This document shows positions 22,795 through 62,012 of a stretch of DNA of 64,000 nt, piece by piece; within the stretch, counting starts at the first letter, position 1, and each line of letters opens with the position of its first letter. The stretch spans positions 2,272,001 through 2,336,000 of the forward strand of contig OZ253555.1 in assembly GCA_965262725.1 (NCBI GenBank). Reading direction: 5' to 3'. The notes under the pieces are model-generated. The model did not search any database. It was not told the origin of the DNA and worked only from the letters and a program-made list of their open reading frames with translations. Source of the stretch: Dehalococcoidia bacterium. GTDB lineage: Bacteria > Chloroflexota > Dehalococcoidia > UBA2979. The translations under genes were made by a program, and so were the position numbers.

Positions 22795-22870
22795 TGGTGC
22801 CGAGGGCCGGAATCGAACCGGCGACACCACGATTTTCAGTCGTGTGCTCTACCGACTGAGCTACCTCGGC
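22795..22870 (-). tRNA. tRNA-Phe (GAA)
   Basis: GCCGAGGTAGCTCAGTCGGTAGAGCACACGACTGAAAATCGTGGTGTCGCCGGTTCGATTCCGGCCCTCGGCACCA; cloverleaf with encoded CCA. Confidence 0.97.
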
Positions 22871-31097: not shown

Positions 31098-31982
31098 CTA
31101 CTCGGGGGCAGCGTCGCCCGCCGGACCGCTCGTCGCGACGTCGGCCGCCGCGTAGGCGGTGGTGGAGCCGTCGGCCGACCGGATCAGGAGCTCGCCCGTT
31201 GGCGAGACGTCGAGGGCCAGGCCCTCCACGACGCTCGCGCCGGGGCCGGAGGCCGGGACGGCGAGCCGCACCCGCTGCCCCAGCGTCAGGAGGCGCGACC
31301 GCCACGCGGCGGTGAGCGACGCCGGCTCGTCGGCTGCCTGGCGCCACCTCTCCCCGAGCGCGGCCGAGAGCGCCGCGAGCACCTCCTCGGGGGAGACGGA
31401 GCGCCCTCCTGCCTCGACGACGCCCGCGGCCGCCTCGGCCAGCGCGGCCGGAAGCGCCGCGGCGCTCGTCAGGTTCACGCCGATGCCGAGCAACACGTCG
31501 ACGCGGCCACCCGGCGCCGCCGCCGACTCGGCCAGGATGCCGGCGACCTTGCGGACCGCGCCCGAGCCCTCGCCGCCGGAGCCCACCACGACATCGTTCG
31601 GCCACGTGTAGCGCGGATCGAGGCCCGCCGCCTCGCGAAGGGCGTCGCCGACGGCGAGCGCGCCCGCGATGGTCGCGCGCGCGGCCTGATCGGACGAGCC
31701 GCAGAGGTGGTAGGTCACGAGGAGTCCGGAGCCGGCCGGCGAGTCCCATCGCCGCCCGTGCCGACCGCGGCCCGCCTCCTGTTCGCCGGCGACGAAAGCG
31801 CTGCCGCAGGAGGAGAGCCCCTCGCTCTCCGCGGCCGAGCGCGCGTCGTCCATCGTCGAACGCGTCCGCTCGCGGAAGCGGACGCGTTGCCCGACCGCGC
31901 CGCGCCCGCGCCGCGCGCCGAGCAGCGCCCGGTAGCGGTCCTCATCGAACGGCGGCACGAGATCTTCCCTCCCCCGGCTCAT
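31098..31982 (-). CDS. birA: Biotin-[acetyl-CoA carboxylase] ligase
   Basis: STMD, EQEAGRGRHGRRW, WPND, KVAGIL, GIGVN; no N-terminal HTH domain. Confidence 0.9.
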   Translation of the reverse strand: MSRGREDLVPPFDEDRYRALLGARRGRGAVGQRVRFRERTRSTMDDARSAAESEGLSSCGSAFVAGEQEAGRGRHGRRWDSPAGSGLLVTYHLCGSSDQAARATIAGALAVGDALREAAGLDPRYTWPNDVVVGSGGEGSGAVRKVAGILAESAAAPGGRVDVLLGIGVNLTSAAALPAALAEAAAGVVEAGGRSVSPEEVLAALSAALGERWRQAADEPASLTAAWRSRLLTLGQRVRLAVPASGPGASVVEGLALDVSPTGELLIRSADGSTTAYAAADVATSGPAGDAAPE

Positions 31983-32070
31983 GCGCGGGCCGCGGCCCGC
32001 ACGCGGGAGCGATCGACGACCGGCATCCCGTCCCCCCGGCCGACGCCGTCGGCGACGGGAGGCGAGACGC

Positions 32071-32108
32071 AAAGAGAGAGGCGCGCCGGCCGATGGCCGA
32101 CGCGCCTC
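32071..32108 (-). terminator. Intrinsic terminator of the small transcription unit
   Basis: Minus strand: gaggcgcgtcggcc-atc-ggccggcgcgcctc followed by tctcttt. Confidence 0.7.
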
Positions 32109-32133
32109 GCGTATATCGCACCGGACCCGGGAA

Positions 32134-32205
32134 CTAGCCCGGACGCACCTCCTCAGAGATGCCGGGGAAGCGCCCGCGATCCGGGCGACATTGTCTATCA
32201 CTCAT
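32134..32205 (-). CDS. Putative 23-aa small protein MSDRQCRPDRGRFPGISEEVRPG (or dual-function sRNA)
   Basis: Preceded by GAAAGGAGGTGAT (extended anti-16S complement); has its own promoter and terminator. Confidence 0.6.
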   Translation of the reverse strand: MSDRQCRPDRGRFPGISEEVRPG

Positions 32206-32234
32206 AAGAGGCATCACCTCCTTTCCTGCCGGCG

Positions 32235-32263
32235 AAGATAGCGGCGCGGTCGGGGGTCGTCAA
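32235..32263 (-). promoter_or_regulatory. sigma70-type promoter of the small unit
   Basis: TTGACG-N17-TATCTT. Confidence 0.7.
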
Positions 32264-32344
32264 TCCAACGGCGCAGCGTCGTGCGCATGTGCGGCGGCGC
32301 GGCCCCACGGCGGGTCTCGCACCCTCTCCGGGCTTGGCGAGCCG

Positions 32345-33718
32345 CTACCCGAGCGTCGCCCGCACGGCAGCGTCGAGGGCGCCGACCACCTGGTCCACCT
32401 CGTCTCCGTTCACCACGAGCGGGGGCGCGAGGACGATCTCATCGCCGACGAAGCGCGTGATCACGGATCCCTCCTCGCGCATGTGGCGCGCGACCCGTCC
32501 GCCGACCCCCTCCGAGGCATCGAAGCGCTCGCCGCTCCCCGCGTCCCGCACGAGCGAGAGCCCGGCGATCAGTCCGAGCTGCCGGATGTTGGCGACGTGG
32601 GGGTGCGCCCCGAGCGAGGCGCGTAGCCCCTCGCCCAGGCGCTCGCCCATCGCCCGGCCGTTCTCGACCAGGCGCTCCTCCTCGATGATGCGCAGGTTGC
32701 GCAGCGCCACCGCGGCCGCGGTCGGGTGCGCGCTGTTCGTGTAGGCGTGCATGAAGCGCGCGTCCGGCGGGAGGTCGTGGAGCGCCTCCGTGATCGGGCC
32801 CGAGAGCACGACCGCCCCCAGCGGCACGTAGCCGGAGGTGATCGCCTTCGCGACGGAGAGGATGTCCGGGACGACGCCCCAGCGCTCGAGTGCGAACCAG
32901 TGTCCCGTGCGGCCGAATCCGGTGATCACCTCGTCGGAGACGAGGAGCACCTCGTACCGGTCGCAGATCTCGCGGAGCCGCGGAAAGTAGTCGTCCGAGG
33001 GCGTCCAGACGCCCCCCGCCCCCTTCACGGGCTCGGCGATCACGCAGGCGACAGTGTCGGCGCCGGCGCGCTCGATCGCGGACTCGATCCAGTGCGCGCA
33101 TTCGCCGTCCGCGTTCGGCCGGCAGCCGCACTCCAGGTTCTCGGGGCGGGTCGCACGGATGACGTCGTCAGGGAGCGGCCCGAAGTACTTCCAGAATGCC
33201 GGCAGCCCCGTCATGGCCGAGGTGGCGAGCGTGCCGCCGTGGTAGGCGCGCTCGCGCGCCACCACCTTCACCTTCCCGGAGCGCCCCATGAGGTTCCAGT
33301 AGAAGCGCGCCGTCTTGAAGGCGGCCTCGTTGGATTCAGAGCCGGAGTTGGTGAAGTAGACGCCTTCCATCCCGTCGTAGGCGAGGCCGGCCAGGGTGCG
33401 GGCGAGCTCGATGGCGGGAACGTTGGAGAAGCCCGTGTAGTTGTTCGTGAAGGCCAGCCGGCGCATCTGCTCGGAGGCGGCGTCGGCGAGTTCGGCGCGG
33501 CCGTGGCCGACCGCGACGTTCCAGAGCGAGGAGAGCCCGTCGATGTAGCGGCGGCCGCGCACATCGGTCAGCCAGACGCCCTCGCCGGAGGCGAAGATCA
33601 CCGGATCGGCGTGATCGGGCGCGTAGTACTGCGGGTGCAGCAGGTGACCGAGGTCCTCCTCGACGAGGCGCGCGATCGTCGCCTCGTCCAGCCGCGGGCC
33701 CATCCCCGTCGTGCTCAC
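32345..33718 (-). CDS. Class III aminotransferase (omega-amino acid transaminase type)
   Basis: IDGLSSLWNVAVGHG, SGSESNE, AYHGGT, IAEPV, DEVITGFGRTG, AKAITSGY. Confidence 0.92.
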   Translation of the reverse strand: MSTTGMGPRLDEATIARLVEEDLGHLLHPQYYAPDHADPVIFASGEGVWLTDVRGRRYIDGLSSLWNVAVGHGRAELADAASEQMRRLAFTNNYTGFSNVPAIELARTLAGLAYDGMEGVYFTNSGSESNEAAFKTARFYWNLMGRSGKVKVVARERAYHGGTLATSAMTGLPAFWKYFGPLPDDVIRATRPENLECGCRPNADGECAHWIESAIERAGADTVACVIAEPVKGAGGVWTPSDDYFPRLREICDRYEVLLVSDEVITGFGRTGHWFALERWGVVPDILSVAKAITSGYVPLGAVVLSGPITEALHDLPPDARFMHAYTNSAHPTAAAVALRNLRIIEEERLVENGRAMGERLGEGLRASLGAHPHVANIRQLGLIAGLSLVRDAGSGERFDASEGVGGRVARHMREEGSVITRFVGDEIVLAPPLVVNGDEVDQVVGALDAAVRATLG

Positions 33719-35415: not shown

Positions 35416-35895
35416 ATGATCCGCCTGACGGACGAGATGCAGAGCGCCGTGAACGACGCCCTCACGGAGGGCGTGCCCATCACGATCGCCGCCGTCGACG
35501 CCGCGGGCCAGCCGAACATCACCTTCCGCGGCAGCACGCAGGCGCTCGACGAGGAGCGGCTTGCCCTCTGGGCACGCAACCCGGAGGGGGGCCTCGTGCG
35601 CTCGATCCAGAGCAACCCGCGCGTCGCGCTGCTCTACCGGCACCCGGCGCGGGGCCTCGCACTGCTCTTCCACGGCCGCGCGCACGTGACCGAGGACGCC
35701 GCACTCGCGGCGGCCATCTACGAGCGATCGCCCGAGCCGGAGCGGGCCCGGGACCCGGAGCGCGGCGGCGTCGCGGTGGTGATCGAACTCGACCGCGTGA
35801 TCCAGCGCGGGGCCGCGATCATGGAGCGCGACCAGGCGGTCGCAGCCTCCCCGCGGCTGCCTGCGGCGCCGGAGAGTGGGACAGGGGACCTGTAA
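35416..35895 (+). CDS. Pyridoxamine 5'-phosphate oxidase-like (split-barrel) protein
   Basis: IAAVDAAGQPNITFRGS, IQSNPRVALL, FHGRA. Confidence 0.75.
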   Translation: MIRLTDEMQSAVNDALTEGVPITIAAVDAAGQPNITFRGSTQALDEERLALWARNPEGGLVRSIQSNPRVALLYRHPARGLALLFHGRAHVTEDAALAAAIYERSPEPERARDPERGGVAVVIELDRVIQRGAAIMERDQAVAASPRLPAAPESGTGDL

Positions 35896-36280
35896 GCGGG
35901 ATTCTGTCCCGCCCGCCGCCCGAGGGGCGGAAGCGGGGACGGTCATCCATCTAGGACGGCGGTTGCCCGCCGCCTCCAGCAGCCTACCCGGGGGCGGGAC
36001 CGGACCTCCCATCGCCCCCCTATGTGGCCTTGCTCCGGGTGGGGTTTGCCCGGCCGCCCCGTCTCCGGGAACGCCGGTGCGCTCTTACCGCACCATTTCA
36101 CCCTTGCCGCCCCGCCGGGCCCGGGGGCTCCGCGGGGAGGCGGTATGTTTCTGTGGCACTTTCCGTCGGCTCGCGCCGCCCGGCCGTTAGCCGGCACCCT
36201 GTCCGGTGGAGTCCCGACTTTCCTCCCGCGGGGGCGCCCACCACGTGGGGCCGTCCGCTGGCGACCGTCCGGTCCCCTGT
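35881..36280 (-). ncRNA. rnpB: RNase P RNA (type A)
   Basis: Minus strand GAGGAAAGTCGGGACTCCAC, AAAGTGCCACAGAAAC, GGTGAAATGGTGCGGTAAGAGCGCACC, GGCAAACCCCACCCGGAGCAAGG, GACAGAATCCCGCTTAC; P1 acaggggacc/ggtcccctgt; TGTGATAAT promoter just upstream. Confidence 0.97.
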
Positions 36281-59144: not shown

Positions 59145-62012
59145 TCACGGCGAGCGGCCGGGGCGCGAGGGGGCGGGCCCGTGGAGGTCGCCCCAGGAGC
59201 GACCCCATTTCTCCTCGAGCACGAGCGGGACGGCAAGCTCCATGGAGGGCATGAGCCGCGCCGCGGTCTCTCGCACCCAGCCGAGCTCCGCCGCCGGCAG
59301 CTCGAAGATCAGCTCGTCGTGCACCTGGAGCACGAGCCGCGCCCGTGCCCCCGCGGCGCGCCCCTGCTCGAGCTCGTGGTCGATGCGGTTCGTCGCGATT
59401 TTGATGATGTCGGCCGCCGTCCCCTGCGCCGGCATGTTGATCGCGATCCTCTCCGCCGCCATGCGCCGGTTGCGGTCGTGCGCCCGGAGCGCCGGCACGG
59501 GTCGCCGCCGCCCCGTCAGCGTCTCCGCGTACCCCTTCTCCCGCGCCTCCTCGACCACGCGCTCGCGCCACTCCGCGACCCCCGGGTAGGCCTCGAAGTA
59601 GGCGCGGATGAACTCCTCCGCCTGCTCGTGCGGGATGCCCTCGCGCTGGGTCAGGCCGAACGCCGTGAGCCCGTAGAGCACGCCGAAGTTGAAGACCTTG
59701 GCGCGCCGCCTCTGCTCGCGATCGACCTCCCCGGGGTCGACGCCGAAGACGCGGGCGGCCGTCGCCGCGTGCACGTCGAGGCCCTCCAGGAACGCCTGCC
59801 GGAGCTCCTCGTCGCCCGAGAGATGTGCCAGGATCCGGAGCTCGATCTGCGAGTAGTCGACCGAGAGGAGAATCGGATCCTCGCCGCAGTCGCGCGCCAC
59901 GAAGGCGCGGCGGATGTCGTTTCCCATCTCGGTGCGCACAGGGATGTTCTGGAGATTGGGGTCGTTGGAGGAGAGCCGTCCCGTCGCCGCCGTCACCTGC
60001 GAGTAGACGGTGTGCACGCGACCGGTGCGCGGATTGACCTGCGAGGGAAGCGTTGCGACGTAGGTGGACCTGAGCTTGGTGAGCTCGCGCCACCTGAGCA
60101 CCGCCTCCACGACCGGGTGGACGCCGCGGAGCGCCTCCAGCGCATTCGCATCCGTGGTCCAGCCCGTGCGGGTCTTCCGCGTCTTGGGCAGGCCCAGATC
60201 CACGAAGAGGACCTGCGAGAGCTGCTGCGGCGATCCGATCTGGAACTCGTGGCCGATGGAGCGGTAGACCTCCGCTTCGGCGTCGGCGATCTCCTCGTCG
60301 AGCTGCCCCGAGAGCTCGGTGAGCACGGCCACGTCGAGGGCCATACCGGCCCGCTCCATCCGCGCCAGCACGGCGATATGCGGGCGGTCGAGATCGCGGT
60401 AGAGGCCGTCGAGCCCGCTCGCCCGCAGTTCCGGCTCGAGGACGGCCGCGAGCCGGAGGACCGCGTCCGCCCGCGGCGCCGCGTAGTCGCAGGTCTCCTG
60501 GAGCGGGGCCTCGGAGAAGGCGATCGCCGTGCGCCCGCTCCCGAGCAGTTCCCGGGGGTCCATCAGCTCGAGCCCCAGCCGGTCGAAGGCGAGCCTCGAC
60601 AGCGTTATGTTGACGTCACCGAGCACGTAGGCGGCGAGCATCGTGTCGACGTCGATGTCGGCGGCCTCGACGCGCTCCGGGGACTCGGCGAGGGCGACGA
60701 GCCACATCTTCCCGTTGTGTGCGACGCGCGTAATCGCGGCGTCGGCGAGAAGCGGCCCCAGCGCCCCCAGCAGCTCGCGCGCCGCGAGTGAGACCGGCGC
60801 GCCGGTCGCCTCCTCCATCTTGCCGTCGTCGCCGGGCTCGAGAGCGAGCGCCGCCTGGCCGCCCGGGGCGGCCGGAGCGGGCTCGCGGGCGAGGGGCGCG
60901 TACCAGCCGCTTCCCTCGGCGGTCGAGAGGGCGAGGCCGACGAGCGTCTCGGCGGCGCGCATCGGGTGCTCCTCGTCGGCGATGAGTTCCACCGCGACGC
61001 GGCCGGCGGTGCGTATCTCGCGGACCAGCTCCCGAAGCTCGGCGGTCGTCGTGAGGAGCCGGTACCGACCCTCGACCCTCGTGCTGGGCGGCTCGCCGCC
61101 CGCGGCGCCGTCATCCTCCGCGGGCTCTGGGAGGCGCGCGAGCAACGAGCGGAACTCGAGCTCACGGAAGAGCGCGATCACCCGGCTGCGGTCGTAGCCG
61201 CCCCAGCGGGCCCGCTCCCAGTCGAGCGTGACGCCGGGGACGTCCTCCACGATCGTCGCGAGGCGCCGGGAGAGATCGGCCTCCTCCCGACCGGCGGCGA
61301 GCGCGGCGCGCGCGCGCGGCGGGGTCACCTCATCGAGGTGCGCGTAGATCTCCTCCACCGTCCCCCAGCGCGTGATGAGCGCCTTTGCGCCCTTCTCGCC
61401 GATCCCGCGCACGCCGGGGATGTTGTCGGATGTGTCGCCGACCAGCGACTTGTAGTCGACGACGCGTCTGGGATCGAACCCGAAGCGCTCGCGCACCTTC
61501 GCCTCGTCGTAGAGCACGTAGTCACGCTGGTAGGGGCGATACATGTAGACGCGGACGCCGGGTCGGACAAGCTGCAGGAGGTCGTTGTCGAGGGTGACCA
61601 GCACGGTCTCGATCCCGGCCTCGACGGCCTGCGCGGCGAGCGTGCCGAGCACGTCGTCCGCCTCGTAGCCCACGGCCTCGATGCGCGGGACCGCGATCGC
61701 CTCCAGGAGCTCCCGCACGCGGTCGACCTGCGGGCGCAAGTCGTCGGGCATCGGCTCCCGGTGGGCCTTGTAGCGTTCGTCCTCCTGCTTCCGGAAGGTC
61801 TCCTCGGAGGCATCCCACGCGGCGATCACGTGGGTCGGGCGCAGCTCGTTGAACACCGTGAGGAGAGAGTTCGCGTAGCCGTAGACGGCCCAGACCGGTT
61901 CTCCCGAGTGCCCGACCGTGAGCGTGTCGCGCATGGCGAAATAGGAGCGGAAAATGATCCCGTGCGAGTCGAGGATGACGAGCAGAGGCGAGCGGATGGC
62001 GGGCTCCGACAC
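59145..62012 (-). CDS. polA: DNA polymerase I
   Basis: 5'-3' exonuclease (YEADDVLGTL, GDTSDNIPGV), TGRLSSNDPNLQNIP, DYSQIELR, AKVFNFGVLYG, QGTAADI, QVHDEL. Confidence 0.97.
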   Translation of the reverse strand: MSEPAIRSPLLVILDSHGIIFRSYFAMRDTLTVGHSGEPVWAVYGYANSLLTVFNELRPTHVIAAWDASEETFRKQEDERYKAHREPMPDDLRPQVDRVRELLEAIAVPRIEAVGYEADDVLGTLAAQAVEAGIETVLVTLDNDLLQLVRPGVRVYMYRPYQRDYVLYDEAKVRERFGFDPRRVVDYKSLVGDTSDNIPGVRGIGEKGAKALITRWGTVEEIYAHLDEVTPPRARAALAAGREEADLSRRLATIVEDVPGVTLDWERARWGGYDRSRVIALFRELEFRSLLARLPEPAEDDGAAGGEPPSTRVEGRYRLLTTTAELRELVREIRTAGRVAVELIADEEHPMRAAETLVGLALSTAEGSGWYAPLAREPAPAAPGGQAALALEPGDDGKMEEATGAPVSLAARELLGALGPLLADAAITRVAHNGKMWLVALAESPERVEAADIDVDTMLAAYVLGDVNITLSRLAFDRLGLELMDPRELLGSGRTAIAFSEAPLQETCDYAAPRADAVLRLAAVLEPELRASGLDGLYRDLDRPHIAVLARMERAGMALDVAVLTELSGQLDEEIADAEAEVYRSIGHEFQIGSPQQLSQVLFVDLGLPKTRKTRTGWTTDANALEALRGVHPVVEAVLRWRELTKLRSTYVATLPSQVNPRTGRVHTVYSQVTAATGRLSSNDPNLQNIPVRTEMGNDIRRAFVARDCGEDPILLSVDYSQIELRILAHLSGDEELRQAFLEGLDVHAATAARVFGVDPGEVDREQRRRAKVFNFGVLYGLTAFGLTQREGIPHEQAEEFIRAYFEAYPGVAEWRERVVEEAREKGYAETLTGRRRPVPALRAHDRNRRMAAERIAINMPAQGTAADIIKIATNRIDHELEQGRAAGARARLVLQVHDELIFELPAAELGWVRETAARLMPSMELAVPLVLEEKWGRSWGDLHGPAPSRPGRSP

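Follow-up and report, generated by a model that had tools for sequence, protein, structure and literature searches.

The window analysed here, a stretch of 64,000 nucleotides, is taken from a genome of 3,674,403 bp (a single contig, 70.6% G+C). Between a class-III aminotransferase gene (32345..33718, minus strand) and birA, which encodes a biotin-protein ligase (31098..31958, minus strand), the window sequence holds the features of a mini-gene, all of them on the minus strand. The birA product matches the Pfam models BPL_LplA_LipB and BPL_C as well as TIGR00121, the last with 90.2 bits, above the cut-off of 83.1, and by the Pfam and NCBIfam scans it is a ligase without the N-terminal DNA-binding domain; hisZ and hisG are the next genes after it. 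The upstream aminotransferase is given for context only: it is not BioA, scoring 321 bits against the bioA model, under the cut-off of 405. Neither bioB (best score 23.6 bits) nor bioD was found in the window's whole genome, which keeps birA, and the organism is probably a biotin auxotroph. Given the score of the aminotransferase and the absence of bioB and bioD, the locus has no biotin-synthesis theme.

The initial annotation had described a hidden gene at this place, with a promoter, an over-long Shine-Dalgarno (SD) sequence, a 23-residue ORF and a terminator of its own, and each of these parts was recovered. A consensus scan places a -35 hexamer TTGACG at 32258..32263 and, after a 17-nt spacer, a -10 hexamer TATCTT at 32235..32240 (both minus strand). 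This TTGACG-N17-TATCTT site (32263-32235) is the sole promoter-like site in 31500-32900, where shuffled sequences gave a mean of 0.0, and we read it as a promoter of sigma-70 type from which transcription would start at about 32227-32229, giving a predicted RNA of ~160 nt. An extended SD of 13 nt, GAAAGGAGGUGAU, complementary to the 16S 3' tail, lies at 32213..32225 on the minus strand (GAAAGGAGGTGAT, read from 32225 to 32213). The single 16S gene of the genome ends ...GGATCACCTCCTTTCTAG, and thus all 13 nt of the mini-gene SD are a perfect complement of the rRNA tail. The 13-mer occurs twice in the whole genome, once as this SD and once antisense to the 16S gene, and nowhere else.

A 23-codon ORF, MSDRQCRPDRGRFPGISEEVRPG, occupies 32134..32205 on the minus strand, from an ATG at 32205-32203 to a TAG at 32136-32134; the ORF list extends it from an in-frame upstream GTG (32134..32217, 27 aa). 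The start region (32212-32186) is AT-rich, as had been remarked, with 12/27 G+C against 70.6% for the genome, and the second SD-like motif reported near the ORF end is there, GAGGAGGTG at 32154-32146. Both of the repeats that had been pointed out, cgcccg/cgggcg and, around the stop codon, ccggg/cccgg, are present in the sequence. The minimum free energy (MFE) fold, a duplex test and covariation define a helix, P1, whose 5' strand (32173..32191, minus strand) lies in ORF codons 5-11 and whose 3' strand (32113..32131, minus strand) stands immediately 3' of the stop codon, while the MFE fold and covariation define a hairpin, P2, GCAUCUC-UGAG-GAGGUGC (32145..32162, minus strand). The terminator scan gave an intrinsic terminator at 32070..32108 (minus strand), with a 14-pair stem at 32108-32078, 12 of the pairs G-C, and a U-rich tail, TCTCTTTG; it is the sole terminator-like site in 31500-32900. 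The start of birA appears to be the GTG at 31958-31956, 120 nt past the terminator stem.

We rejected identity with a known housekeeping RNA, given that the SRP RNA sits elsewhere in the genome and that the Rfam 6S RNA model gave no match in the window's genome, a weak negative since this model matched just 5 of 14 control genomes.

An RNase P RNA of class A (window 35877-36280, minus strand, 249 bits) lies three genes upstream of the element. A tRNA-Phe in the window (22795-22870) was found by both ARAGORN and Rfam; ARAGORN also reports a tRNA-Arg (TCG) at 59859-59933 (minus strand, anticodon position 32), which the Rfam tRNA search at gathering score does not list.

Distribution of the element across Chloroflexota

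A BLAST-type search found the stretch in all four same-genus genomes, at 84-89% identity, and in one other genus, while scanning 185,579 species for the motif gave 22 stretches, about 15 of which we judged to be true relatives, all of them in Dehalococcoidia or Chloroflexi MAGs. Two covariance models were used, R1 (18 sequences) and R2 (50 diverse sequences). With R1, the element was found in 81 of the 99 genomes of the window's family (19/21 genera; 45/48 high-quality genomes), with one high-scoring full-length match per genome and, in four genomes, a second, far weaker one; one such second match (L112), which has no SD or ORF, was rejected. R2 gave exactly one match in each positive genome, both at the level of the class (57/151 genomes) and at that of the phylum Chloroflexota (51/151, a tally that includes one genome, G508, flagged as unpublished). 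When the 185,579 species were scanned with a strict motif, 36 stretches were found, of which 35 are labelled as Chloroflexota lineages (Anaerolineae, Ktedonobacterales, Thermomicrobiales, Chloroflexia, Caldilineae, Ardenticatenales, Dehalococcoidia or simply Chloroflexota) and one is in a MAG labelled as a proteobacterium; a looser scan returned at least 119, overwhelmingly Chloroflexota. The element is also carried by a cultured organism, Tepidiforma flava YIM 72310 (81.8 bits), in the same element-birA layout, located at L276:1150-1620.

Some matches stand apart from this set. Five loci (L285, L301, L310, L240 and L271) in MAGs labelled Acidobacteriota, Proteobacteria or 'bacterium' have full-length R2 matches of 32-77 bits, and may be mis-binned or mislabelled Chloroflexota contigs. 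We dropped L241 and L277, pattern matches that have no model match, and the three loci of f14 (L126, L127 and L158), whose 42-codon Cys-rich ORFs share only the pattern. The f14 ORF is itself conserved, reading MSDARAVCKNCQGK... after GGAGGTGATG; one genome has it twice, and birA is not close by. L202 and L203, with 13-14 codons and no birA, were kept as uncertain relatives only.

The element has escaped annotation. Against Rfam 15 (4227 models), the window's copy has no match at gathering score, and none of six distant members reached threshold, the best being ar14 at 27.3 bits against 58.8. All seven of the peptides tested are absent from a collection of 15 billion proteins, the NCBIfam scan of the window gave no family for the mini-gene peptide, and a literature search found no description of the element. 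The proposal of a complete unit overlooked by gene callers is therefore upheld: the mini-gene is real, conserved, single-copy per genome and, as far as we found, previously undescribed.

The promoter and the long SD are conserved with it. In the aligned -10 hexamers of 18 relatives (TATCGT/TATCTT), the T, A, T and C are invariant, and TTGAN-N16-19-TANNNT is found upstream in 134 of 185 unique elements. The complement to the 16S tail has a median length of 11 nt and reaches at least 11 nt (11-14) in 146 of these 185, so the over-long SD noted in the window is a property of the group; other families of the class have the consensus AGGAAAGGAGGUGAUG, and in part of the window's family the SD core is GGGGG. 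In one Anaerolineae MAG (L207:7227-7290, minus strand), GGATCACCTCCCC, which reproduces the 16S 3' tail and has a run of T behind it, is found just upstream of the element promoter, and the L207 ORF also holds GCATCACCTCC.

RNA structure

The predicted RNA of 162 nt folds at -91.5 kcal/mol, against -69.3 ± 4.3 kcal/mol for shuffled sequences (z = -5.2). In P1, ORF nucleotides 6-36 (codons 5-11) are paired with the 20-25 nt that follow the stop codon. The P1 duplex of the window has an energy of -30.9 kcal/mol (z -3.8), and among family members the mean is -22.0 kcal/mol, against -12.9 kcal/mol for shuffles, with 5% or fewer of the shuffles matching the real duplex in 53/61 members. P1 has at least 8 pairs in the MFE folds of only 33/55 diverse members, and the terminator hairpin is present in 55/55; it is important to note that the relatives are not independent, and such member counts overstate the support. 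The outer P1 helix and the terminator were also recovered by RNAalifold on a MAFFT alignment built without structure information. Across the columns of P1, P2 and terminator, 79.4% of cells are paired, against 44-51% with the partners slid by 1-3 columns, and the covariation score is 0.389, against 0.07-0.17 when slid, a value reached by none of 500 shuffles. Changes on both sides are seen in 5/7 P1 pairs and in 11/11 of the terminator pairs counted. Base conservation is seen in the SD, in the start codon and along the helix strands but not at junctions, and the interior sequence of P1 and P2 is variable.

P2 pairs the internal SD-like GGAGGUG (GAGGAGGUG in the window RNA, at 32154-32146) with a strand that itself resembles an anti-SD (CAUCUC, or GCAUCACCUCC in some lineages). 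The GAGGUG of P2 begins 15 nt ahead of the stop codon in 60 of 66 unique ORFs, a set fetched in part by a pattern that contains the motif. For a ribosome whose A site holds the stop codon, the GGAGG core would end 8 nt before the P-site codon, which would be an initiation-like spacing.

The SD at the 5' end is itself mostly paired in the MFE folds (median 3/10 nt unpaired; at least 8 unpaired in 4/55 members), with no conserved partner strand. One candidate partner was the C-rich tract after the stop codon, which seemed to covary with the SD (GGAGG/GGGGG with CCUCU/CCCCC); we rejected it since the duplex test was weak (z -0.84, 13/61) and since the tract finds a better partner in the ORF, within P1.

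Linkage to birA

Downstream of the element and on the same strand, birA is found in 58/61 family members, in 11/14 loci from other families of the class, in 9/11 from other classes and in 81/104 pattern-derived loci (a further 4 have too little sequence). The three family members without a birA match have, respectively, a contig end, hisZ in its place, and an inserted 752-codon ORF with birA behind it. That inserted ORF (L108 / L189, G110:C64) has no Pfam match. At another locus (L149, G288), the birA that follows the element is divided between two reading frames, pointing to a frameshift or an error of assembly; the GRGRRGR motif is present. The other neighbours vary: members of the window's family have the aminotransferase and hisZ, and MurE or other genes are found elsewhere. 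Given that the remaining neighbours differ between groups, we take the link to birA to be specific.

Between the terminator stem and the start of birA lie 16-120 nt, the shortest spacers measuring 16-30 nt, and no promoter-like motif was found in any terminator-birA spacer examined, from which it follows that birA would be reached only by read-through. The element therefore has the position of a birA leader, and its terminator that of an attenuator. The description of the element as a stand-alone gene is thus half right: it has a promoter and a terminator of its own, but in most genomes it is the leader of birA.

The linkage is not universal. In family f53 a convergent gene follows the element, and in f4 birA is likewise not downstream; in four genomes birA is elsewhere and has no second copy of the element. 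In Thermomicrobiales, dxs follows the element in 3/3 loci examined. Since the element persists where birA is not downstream, it must also have an independent existence. The three Thermomicrobiales MAG loci in which the element precedes dxs (L214, L215 and L223) encode the peptide MDSSSSLVGVTGKSVR, lack the internal GGAGGUG, and have, in divergent orientation to the element, a class-III aminotransferase, a family that also neighbours it in the window.

A terminator between leader and gene calls for a search for an alternative fold, and none was detected. Pairing of the terminator 5' arm with the post-stop region gave a mean z of +0.19 (2/61 members below 5%), and pairing with the 5' UTR gave a mean z of -0.1 (2/55). 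In some members, folds cut before the 3' arm do bring the 5' arm of the terminator together with the 5' UTR, but shuffled sequences pair just as well, and we rejected this candidate. As a rule, 20-28 nt separate the stop codon from the terminator stem, and a terminating ribosome would therefore be too distant to block the hairpin. We also considered a second ORF, which would start at the GUG in the 3' strand of P1 and read on past the terminator into birA; in the window it has 59 codons. Such an ORF is found in 48/61 members, yet of 183 frames followed across the terminator, 146 are open in any case; open frames being so common there, we regard the second ORF as background.

A reading frame kept, a peptide drifting

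Covariance models are blind to reading frame, and the loci they retrieve are free of pattern bias; among the 61 family members found in this way the aligned-frame ORF is present in 61. In these, an ATG or GTG stands 3-6 nt past GGRGGTGATG and opens an ORF of 19-24 codons, or in one case 41. At the level of the class, an ORF of 15-24 codons beginning with ATG or GTG is listed at the aligned start in 13/14 loci, the remaining locus having, in our judgement, an in-frame TTG; an ORF is present in 11/11 loci from other classes. Across elements the length is 16-25 codons, with two exceptions, of 41 and 43. A 41-codon ORF, at L090:2501-2737 (G048), is expanded by repeated E-G-E units, and the element there is ~60 nt longer.

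We measured 66 unique ORFs between RNA landmarks that are independent of frame, bearing in mind that part of these loci had been fetched by patterns that presuppose the SD, the start codon and the internal GGAGGTG. The distance from the start codon to the GTC of P1 takes four values (10, 13, 16 and 19), all equal to 1 mod 3, and that from P1 to the internal GRGGY motif takes nine, of which eight, accounting for 65/66 sequences, equal 2 mod 3. The non-coding flanks vary freely: the distance from SD to start codon (3-6 nt) is mixed mod 3, and that from stop codon to terminator (11-56 nt) has its residues spread 20/24/22. The start codon is ATG in 43 and GTG in 23 of the 66, and the end position, which is TAG in 29, TAA in 27 and TGA in 10, is not occupied by a sense codon in any of them.

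The peptide itself is poorly kept. All that recurs phylum-wide is an N-terminal M-D-x-S-S/H and, in many lineages, an E-V three residues before the end. Our conclusion from this comparison of sequences is that selection appears to be for translation, not for a particular peptide. The earlier suggestion of a highly translated micropeptide therefore fares unevenly: the ORF bears the evolutionary signature of translation, but its product varies so much over the phylum that we think a need for translation itself more likely than a functional micropeptide.

That the element is nonetheless an autonomous gene, whose acidic, Ser/His-rich peptide of 16-25 residues acts in trans while birA hitch-hikes on read-through, is a reading to which we give a rather low probability. 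It would account for the element having its own promoter and terminator, for the signature of translation, for the retention of the element where birA is not downstream, and for an N-terminus that recurs across classes. The shared residues, however, coincide with helix strands, MDxSS being coded by the P1 5' strand (AGUAGUC) and E-V by the P2 strand (GAGGUG), and the peptide changes where the helices covary (H, R, Q or G at the P1 position). Nor does the variation in ORF length, from 16-25 codons up to 41 and 43, suit such a gene, and the absence of any NCBIfam family counts against it as well. Two particular identities were rejected, a PqqA and a mycofactocin precursor, given that the required Tyr or C-terminal motif of these is absent. 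The peptides are acidic and polar rather than hydrophobic, and no antisense promoter was found in 31500-32900, in keeping with the initial view that the unit does not resemble a type I toxin mRNA.

The kept frame also bears on the other function that had been suggested, an RNA that binds 30S subunits. If the element were a non-coding structured RNA that binds or titrates 30S through two long anti-16S stretches, with the ORF incidental, then the 13-nt complementarity to the 16S tail, the second SD-like motif at its fixed, conserved position and the strong, covarying structure would all be explained, as would the internal anti-SD-like strand that in some lineages equals the 16S tail (for example GCAUCACCUCC in L207). 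But an incidental ORF would not hold a start codon in 61/61 members, keep only stop codons at its end position and limit internal indels to threes while the flanks vary. Thus, of this suggestion the conserved long SD stands, while a pure RNA reading leaves the kept frame unexplained, and we consider it improbable.

Discussion

We think it somewhat probable, from the comparative pattern set out above, that the element is a translated leader mini-gene and attenuator for birA, in which the loading of ribosomes, and not the peptide, would matter. The long SD would capture 30S subunits on a free 5' tail, although the freedom of that tail is an assumption, given that the SD is mostly paired in the MFE folds. 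While translating the ORF, the ribosome would have to unwind P1 and P2, and at the stop codon its anti-SD could re-pair with the internal SD-like motif in initiation-like geometry. Most transcripts would stop at the terminator, giving an abundant small RNA, and the fraction that reads through would supply birA, or dxs in Thermomicrobiales. Given the conserved SD/anti-SD mimicry, ribosome occupancy is the most likely variable in such a system. A more specific form of this proposal, about which we are doubtful, is a phylum-wide ribosome-sensing attenuator, in which the 13-nt SD, the internal SD-like motif and the mimic of the 16S tail would together reproduce the SD:anti-SD interaction within one RNA, and free 30S subunits and the internal mimic would compete to decide the folding and translation of the leader. 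Were it correct, it would couple transcription of birA (and dxs in Thermomicrobiales) to translational capacity, a control principle not known for biotin ligase or for any terminator that lacks an antiterminator.

A metabolite riboswitch, sensing for example biotin or biotinyl-AMP and controlling birA by termination, is very improbable: it would suit an intrinsic terminator in a birA 5' leader and a ligase without a DNA-binding domain, and the phrase 'biotin riboswitch' was not found in the literature searched, so that the niche is open, but the interior of P1 and P2 is variable with the conserved bases outside junctions, no alternative pairing with the terminator was seen, a preserved ORF is not a riboswitch feature, and in other lineages the element precedes dxs or no gene.

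Whichever way it works, the element has the size of a gene and is found, in a single copy, in about one third of the Chloroflexota genomes sampled (51/151) and in nearly all genomes of some families, and given that it is absent from Rfam and from protein catalogues, annotation of the phylum misses it. It is also, as far as our literature search showed, the first RNA- or translation-based element linked to birA that we could find, and the ligase of the organisms that carry it lacks a DNA-binding domain. The combination of an exceptionally long SD with an internal SD/anti-SD mimic at a fixed spacing from the stop codon makes it a natural test case for ribosome anchoring, touching on initiation, termination and transcription read-through. 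Since a cultured carrier exists, Tepidiforma flava YIM 72310, these questions are directly testable.

The closest parallel to the translated leader that we favour is with the leader-peptide attenuators (trpL, hisL, pheL, pyrL), in which a short ORF near the promoter is followed by a terminator and then by a promoterless enzyme gene. The mini-gene appears to share this plan, with a leader ORF (61/61), a terminator (55/55) and a birA that seems to have no promoter of its own. It differs from the trpL type in that no antiterminator or alternative pairing is detectable, in that there is no run of regulatory codons, only M-D-x-S-S/H recurring, and in that its ORF ends 20-28 nt before the terminator with no overlap; moreover, its SD is 11-14 nt long, and in some lineages it survives without the downstream gene. 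The translational-attenuation leaders of ermC and cat have a short ORF with its own SD and a second SD in a hairpin near the end of the leader, and the mini-gene likewise holds a second SD-like sequence in a hairpin near its ORF end. In the mini-gene, however, this second SD precedes the ORF's own stop codon and not a start codon, and what blocks the way downstream is a transcription terminator.

Two other comparisons concern the RNA. STAB-SD and other 5' mRNA stabilisers of Bacillus bind ribosomes, and a STAB-SD, like the SD of the mini-gene, is a long, near-perfect complement of the 16S 3' end (GAAAGGAGG...) near the 5' end of the transcript; unlike a STAB-SD, the SD of the mini-gene is followed by a conserved start codon and ORF, and most transcripts should end ~140 nt further on. 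Dual-function sRNAs that carry tiny ORFs include RNAIII/hld, SgrS/SgrT and SR1/SR1P. The mini-gene would resemble these in being small and structured, with a tiny ORF and a predicted promoter and terminator of its own, but it is linked in cis to birA and its peptide is poorly conserved. At E values up to 10, Rfam gave weak, chance-level matches only, and the one model that touches the window's element is RF01867, the Caulobacter sRNA CC2171, whose consensus also starts with GAAAGGAGGUGAU and ends in a terminator. RF01867 is not the element's family: the match reaches 14.1 bits (E = 2.9) where the gathering score is 75, and it consists of the SD and the terminator only.
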